This document shows, one piece after another, positions 13,148-13,178 of a DNA stretch of 35,113 nucleotides. Source of the DNA: Escherichia coli (GTDB taxonomy: Bacteria > Pseudomonadota > Gammaproteobacteria > Enterobacterales > Enterobacteriaceae); NCBI RefSeq assembly GCF_003334335.1, contig NZ_QOWQ01000044.1; one strand, given 5' to 3'. Positions within the stretch are counted from its first letter, which is position 1; every line of letters starts with the position of its first letter. The notes under the pieces were generated by a model that saw only the letters and a list, made by a program, of their open reading frames with translations, ran no database searches and had not been told where the DNA came from. Both the position numbers and the translations under genes were made by a program.

Positions 13148-13178
13148 GTCGGATGCGGCGCGAGCGCCTTATCCGACC
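13148..13178. repeat. REP element in the lacY-lacA intercistronic gap
   Basis: gtcggatgcggcgcgagcgccttatccgacc palindrome between the lacY stop and lacA start. Confidence 0.85.

Follow-up and report, generated by a model that had tools for sequence, protein, structure and literature searches.

In the window (the whole 35,113-nt stretch of Escherichia coli DNA analysed here), lacA is, as judged from its sequence, translated from a TTG codon at position 13204 that is served by a GGAG Shine-Dalgarno (SD) site, yielding a 203-residue acetyltransferase, and the spacer between lacY and lacA carries a REP. Both the REP and the TTG start have been known since the 1980s, and the preliminary description of this region, which had named both, is right but ordinary. 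The anatomy as read here, i.e., an intact REP, a chance ATG within it, and a TTG start downstream, combined with the classical model in which the REP stabilises lac mRNA, is an account that we regard as likely.

The lac region of the window

The window contains lacI, lacZ (8759–11833), lacY and lacA, followed by cynX on the opposite strand. The lacY coding sequence (11885–13138, plus strand, 417 residues) ends with a TAA stop codon at 13136–13138, as given by the list of open reading frames and by the RefSeq annotation of identical DNA. It is separated by a spacer of 65 nt (13139–13203, plus strand) from lacA (13204–13815, plus strand), which encodes the 203-residue galactoside O-acetyltransferase, an assignment based on the open reading frame, RefSeq, the PDB and NCBIfam. 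The segment 12964–14164, which includes all of lacA, is identical to E. coli K-12 MG1655, and many E. coli chromosomes match the 1.1 kb around the REP and the lacA start at 100% identity. Over 4.5 kb that begin in the 3′ end of lacI, span lacZ and extend into lacY (8564–13064), three bases differ from MG1655, at 8720, 9233 and 11243, and the window is therefore a close relative of MG1655 and not MG1655 itself. The difference at 8720, G to A, falls on the edge of operator O1 (gtgtgAaattgtgagcgg) and immediately precedes the start of lac transcription.

The lacA initiation codon

The TTG at 13204–13206 (plus strand), which had been proposed as the best-supported start of lacA, is supported by RefSeq annotation, PDB entry 1KQA, NCBIfam, the SD site and comparison with other genera. 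RefSeq starts a 612-nt lacA at this base in both K-12 and H10407; eleven further E. coli genomes have the gene annotated from the corresponding base. The 203-residue chain of 1KQA aligns with residues 18–220 of the longer open reading frame that surrounds lacA, such that residue 1 of 1KQA coincides with the TTG at 13204. For the maltose acetyltransferase chains in the PDB, the alignment begins only at residue 23 or 24 of the same reading frame. Positions 1–203 of the NCBIfam equivalog NF007076 likewise fall on residues 18–220, with 466.8 bits against a cutoff of 347. The 17 additional residues of the longer frame have no counterpart in either the PDB chain or the NCBIfam profile.

The SD site GGAG (13192–13195, plus strand) is located 7–8 nt upstream of the TTG, and its duplex with the 3′ end of 16S rRNA is calculated at −6.1 kcal/mol for a 7-nt spacing. 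Among five in-frame candidate starts, the one at 13204 is the only one that has an SD sequence at a workable spacing. The homologous base opens an ATG start in 10 other E. coli sequences, which represent 8 spacer identity classes other than that of K-12. Beyond E. coli, lacA follows lacY in Citrobacter (2), Klebsiella spallanzanii, Kluyvera and Pseudocitrobacter (2), and in each case has an ATG at the homologous codon and an SD sequence of its own. UUG was reportedly identified as the initiation codon of lacA in 1985, and in the same year the LacA protein is said to have been sequenced from Asn-2. UniProt P07464 is presumably the LacA entry for this UUG-initiated gene; the codon is the same, and the sequence is identical to that of K-12. 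A literature search on this REP and the lacA start returned no paper specific to them among the accessible literature.

Start codon and SD alleles in E. coli

The 45-mer of the exact K-12 type (GGAG, TTG) was counted in 1,552 of the approximately 4,740 genomes that carry the lacA junction. The collection behind these counts comprises 5,426 complete E. coli genomes, is redundant, contains laboratory strains as well as outbreak clones, and was sampled for every spacer identity class. Two ATG-allele 45-mers, in which any 28-nt seed word necessarily spans the ATG, have matches in 1,182 and 2,619 genomes of this collection. When the overlap between the two queries is allowed for, genomes with ATG amount to about 3,150 of the approximately 4,740 with the junction, and TTG with GGAG is the minority allele among lacA-bearing E. 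coli genomes. Across the loci compared with the window (L006 and L009–L018), every ATG haplotype sampled has GGAA in place of GGAG. The lac copy on Klebsiella plasmids also starts with ATG. Because the start is ATG both in this plasmid copy and in all the other genera, the combination of TTG and GGAG is most likely derived, and the sequences suggest that ATG with GGAA is probably the ancestral as well as the commoner state of lacA.

A Y-type REP between lacY and lacA

The REP (palindromic unit) occupies 13148–13177 on the plus strand as a 30-nt hairpin of a Y-type variant (GTCGGATGCGGCGCGAGCGCCTTATCCGAC), which was identified by a repeat finder, by folding, and by its match to the consensus. 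It is wholly extragenic, with the lacY stop (13138) before it and the lacA start (13204) beyond it, and the gap between the lacY stop codon and the REP measures 9 nt (13139–13147). The imperfect palindrome consists of 8 base pairs, a one-base bulge on each side, and another 4 pairs closed by the loop CGAG. Folded alone as RNA, the hairpin has a free energy of −18.4 kcal/mol; the z-score for folding of the whole spacer is only −1.96, and structure is claimed for the REP hairpin alone. The fold, the inverted repeat and the consensus match thus bear out the palindrome that had been placed between lacY and lacA. Of the span 13148–13178 originally assigned to it, the start is right and the end is not, since position 13178 is one base past the stem and the REP ends at 13177.

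The E. coli Y-type REP consensus is matched at 29 of 34 positions. Two of the five mismatches are in the loop, two make up a single compensatory pair (C-G to U-A), and one is located in the 3′ tail, and none of them weakens the stem. The REP, or palindromic unit, of E. coli and its Y type were reportedly described in 1982 and 1984. Rfam holds no REP family as such, and its sole match, exactly at the REP, is to the REP-derived naRNA4, at 33.1 bits (E = 0.0027), which is below the gathering score of 59.5. RefSeq annotates no repeat feature at this site in K-12 or H10407.

Further copies are found both within the window and elsewhere in the genome. The Y-type consensus GCCGGATGCGGCGTGAACGCCTTATCCGGCCTAC occurs 5 times in the window, against 0 expected, and the Z-type pattern another 5 times, giving ten other REPs in 35 kb. 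Five other REP clusters, arranged as pairs or BIME-like, are located at 52–134, 17347–17580, 20303–20420, 25153–25362 and 34902–35028, and the 34-nt Y-type consensus is found in them four times without a mismatch. At other E. coli loci, matches confined to the REP extend over 32–37 nt with 97–100% identity, and the number of places with such a match to the lacY–lacA copy has a median of 2 per genome and a maximum of 12.

An intrinsic (Rho-independent) terminator was considered for the same hairpin, and was rejected because the stem is followed by CAACATATCATAACGG with no T-run; a terminator scan gives no call. Structure, consensus match, additional copies and the missing T-run together identify the element as a genuine single REP and not an intrinsic terminator. 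Read on the minus strand, the head of the REP is GTTG and not the canonical GTAG (CCAAC at 13177–13181), i.e., the conserved GTAG that adjoins the hairpin in a RAYT-mobilisable REP is not present in the lacY–lacA copy. With this degenerate head, the copy looks like the decaying relic of a mobile element.

Conservation and distribution of the REP

In 12 E. coli haplotypes, a small sample picked by identity class, none of the 30 REP bases varies, compared with 7 of the 35 other spacer bases (Fisher p = 0.013). Instead of selection for a role in lac, gene conversion between copies of the REP might account for this lack of variation. In the Klebsiella copies, the sole change within the REP turns a G·U pair into A-U. 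In the comparison set the REP is found only in Escherichia-type lac operons: the lacY–lacA junctions of Citrobacter (2), K. spallanzanii, Kluyvera and Pseudocitrobacter (2) have short spacers and no REP. Given its absence from the junction in these genera, the REP is an insertion that arose in the Escherichia lineage and did not belong to lac regulation ancestrally.

A divergent copy of the region was observed in the GTDB species representative "Escherichia coli strain SCPM-O-B-8794" (locus L019, 1437–1500), where LacA is 96% identical and the REP has the canonical GTAG. The spacer is quite different in this strain, and no obvious SD sequence precedes its ATG.

The 3′ flank and the probable loss of lacA

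The lacA–cynX spacer contains a Z-type REP (GCCTGATACGCTGCGCTTATCAGGCCTAC; 13828–13856, plus strand), which is conserved in the BIME-type haplotypes, and an inverted Y-type REP remnant (13877–13890, minus strand), which is 93% complementary to the 5′ arm of the lacY–lacA REP and of which a full copy is present in B2 strains. Among haplotypes, the region 3′ of lacA (window 13816–13917) assumes three forms. The window has the first of these, a REP pair (BIME); the second is a palindrome GTCGGATGCGCCATTGGGCACATCCGAC that we refer to as hairpin B (L006, 1190–1276). The third form, that of B2-type strains such as NU14, has a full REP pair with codA immediately after it and no cyn operon (L017 and L018, 1578–1697). 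Hairpin B and the lacY–lacA REP have AATGTCGGATGCG in common, a stretch of 13 nt in direct orientation.

In 532 of the 5,426 genomes, counted with the same redundancy as above, lacA is precisely missing, and the junction falls inside REP-like palindromes. The lacY stop codon is followed in these genomes by the hybrid palindrome GTCGGATGCG(C/G)CACTGGGCACATCCGAC and then by cynX (L004, 3339–3418; L005, L099, L100 and L101; equivalent to window 13139–13917). The junction occurs in two variants, and at the counterpart of position 13144 each of the two alleles is represented among the lacA-less loci. On sequence, the hybrid junction is consistent with the product expected of a deletion between the 13-nt direct repeats. 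Because lacY and lacA are adjacent in other genera, loss of lacA would be likelier than insertion. We tentatively suggest, as a possible rather than a probable reading, that lacA is a dispensable cassette bounded by REP-type palindromes, which may have been excised via AATGTCGGATGCG in about 10% of genomes, possibly repeatedly, and that the K-12-type lineage would instead have turned lacA down by changing ATG to TTG together with GGAA to GGAG. If this is true, the textbook non-ATG start would be a recent tuning allele and not a fixed feature of the operon.

Disrupted forms of lacA were also observed. An Escherichia-type lacY (about 95% identity) that keeps the REP is present on more than 1,000 plasmids from Klebsiella, Enterobacter and others. 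The plasmid lacA is either truncated by IS1 at the equivalent of window position 13343 (L007, 1340–1360), or removed by IS903B at 13197, immediately ahead of the start codon (L008, 1198–1255). In strain LR-71-1 (NZ_AP027599.1) an IS1 insertion splits lacA, and in strain 2013C-4991 (L016, 966–1576) the gene is annotated as frameshifted.

Possible roles of the REP in lac mRNA

REP-dependent stabilisation of the upstream malE mRNA was reportedly described in 1987, and by analogy with malE–malF it is reasonable to infer that the REP in the lac operon would stabilise lacZY mRNA or lower the output of LacA. Among the REP functions considered, this classical stabiliser model appears to be the best supported. 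The −18 kcal/mol hairpin would block 3′-to-5′ exonucleases (PNPase and RNase II) in lac mRNA, with the consequence that lacZY-containing RNA upstream of the hairpin would outlive the lacA segment. A second possible effect, given that fewer than 15 nt separate the hairpin from the lacY stop codon, is a delay in the release of ribosomes that finish translating lacY. The preliminary description had related the REP to the low expression of lacA relative to lacZ and lacY. As the main cause of low LacA, REP stabilisation is weakened by two of the present results, namely the other genera that have no REP and the TTG start. The weak TTG, itself an allele of the K-12 type, is enough, independently of the REP, to explain low translation of LacA. 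Low LacA levels in K-12-type strains would most likely have several causes acting together: the weak TTG, an uncoupled and structured spacer of 65 nt, and distal mRNA that is less abundant or shorter-lived.

The REP might instead act mainly on LacY, by stalling terminating ribosomes that would then be rescued by tmRNA, at the cost of a lower LacY yield. According to PMC12306157, which cites Liang, Rudd and Deutscher 2015, a REP within 15 nt of a stop codon stalls terminating ribosomes. The 9-nt distance measured directly between the lacY stop codon and the REP is within this limit for REPs that act as translational down-regulators. Only some of the REPs within the distance limit were tested experimentally, and the supplementary files of PMC12306157 (RepRanger) that were examined do not mention lacY or lacA. 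We consider a predominant effect on LacY somewhat doubtful, and note that it is compatible with, and not exclusive of, the stabiliser model.

An unlikely explanation, in our view, is that the REP is a mere passenger, a relic of a mobile REP in the Escherichia lineage with no meaningful effect on lac expression, and that low LacA results wholly from the TTG codon, codon usage and distance from the promoter. The REP-free junctions in Citrobacter, K. spallanzanii, Kluyvera and Pseudocitrobacter fit this explanation, as does the scattering of REPs through the whole window, and so does the GTAG head, which is degenerate (GTTG) in the window and intact in the divergent L019. It is at odds, however, with a REP that is invariant while the flanking spacer varies, and with a stem that is kept both by the compensatory change relative to the consensus and by the change from G·U to A-U in the Klebsiella copies. 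Moreover, stable 3′ hairpins in general impede exonucleases.

It is quite improbable that the REP functions as a partial, factor-dependent transcription attenuator that lets fewer polymerases reach lacA. The position between highly and poorly expressed cistrons would suit such a role, and attenuation associated with BIME or REP elements was reportedly described in 2001, but the hairpin has neither a T-run nor a terminator-scan call, and it is a single REP and not a BIME pair.

The remaining alternative concerns the lacA reading frame itself. An ATG in the 5′ arm of the REP (13153–13155, plus strand), located 17 codons upstream of the TTG and in frame with it, heads the 220-residue open reading frame that is obtained mechanically (13153–13815), and the observation that this listed frame begins inside the REP was correct. 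The in-frame occurrence of this ATG is a matter of chance, and creates a spurious frame. As a start of lacA it is ruled out by SD pairing, structure and comparison: it has no SD pairing (−1.1 kcal/mol) and is buried in the paired stem, it reads ATA in the lac operons of Klebsiella plasmids, and it is out of frame in ST2747 (L013), by a 1-nt deletion, and in the divergent Escherichia locus L019, with lacA intact in both. Three codons upstream of the lacA start there is also an in-frame GTG (13195–13197, plus strand), for which other E. coli haplotypes have ATG; all Escherichia-type sequences examined have one or the other of these codons at this site. This codon is probably not used either; it is without a correctly spaced SD sequence, and Citrobacter, K. 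spallanzanii, Kluyvera and Pseudocitrobacter have no start codon at the corresponding site. Translation of LacA from 13153 (220 residues) or 13195 (206 residues) is highly improbable: the two codons are both in frame, with no intervening stop codon, but the NF007076 profile and the solved structure both begin at 13204, and protein sequencing reportedly gave Asn-2 as the N-terminus.

Implications

The region can serve as a control case for annotation, where the longest-ORF rule yields a wrong LacA of 220 residues because a repeated palindrome supplies an in-frame ATG. Work that relies on lac as a quantitative model may take note that the TTG start and GGAG site regarded as "canonical" are alleles of particular strains, and that the REP is specific to Escherichia. 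Roughly one in ten E. coli genomes is cleanly without lacA, which fits the long-standing view of the gene as dispensable for lactose use.

Comparison with known systems

The element shares with Y-type REPs its length, the imperfect palindrome with a G·U pair and a bulge, the extragenic site, and the many copies in the genome. It differs from the Y-type consensus in being a GTCGGAT...ATCCGAC sub-variant with the compensatory U-A pair, in having the loop CGAG and not TGAA, and in having the tail CCAAC and not CCTAC. With the translational down-regulators of the Liang type, as these are presented in PMC12306157, the lac REP has the distance to the stop codon in common; an action of this kind would lower LacY, and would not explain low LacA. 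As in malE–malF, the REP hairpin in lac is located just after the upstream, more highly expressed cistron of a polycistronic operon. In malE–malF, however, the element is a REP pair whose effect was shown experimentally, whereas in lac it is a single REP, known here from sequence. With respect to the lacA start, the window is the same as K-12, where initiation at UUG is known; what the present comparison adds is that TTG with GGAG is only one of the alleles found in E. coli.
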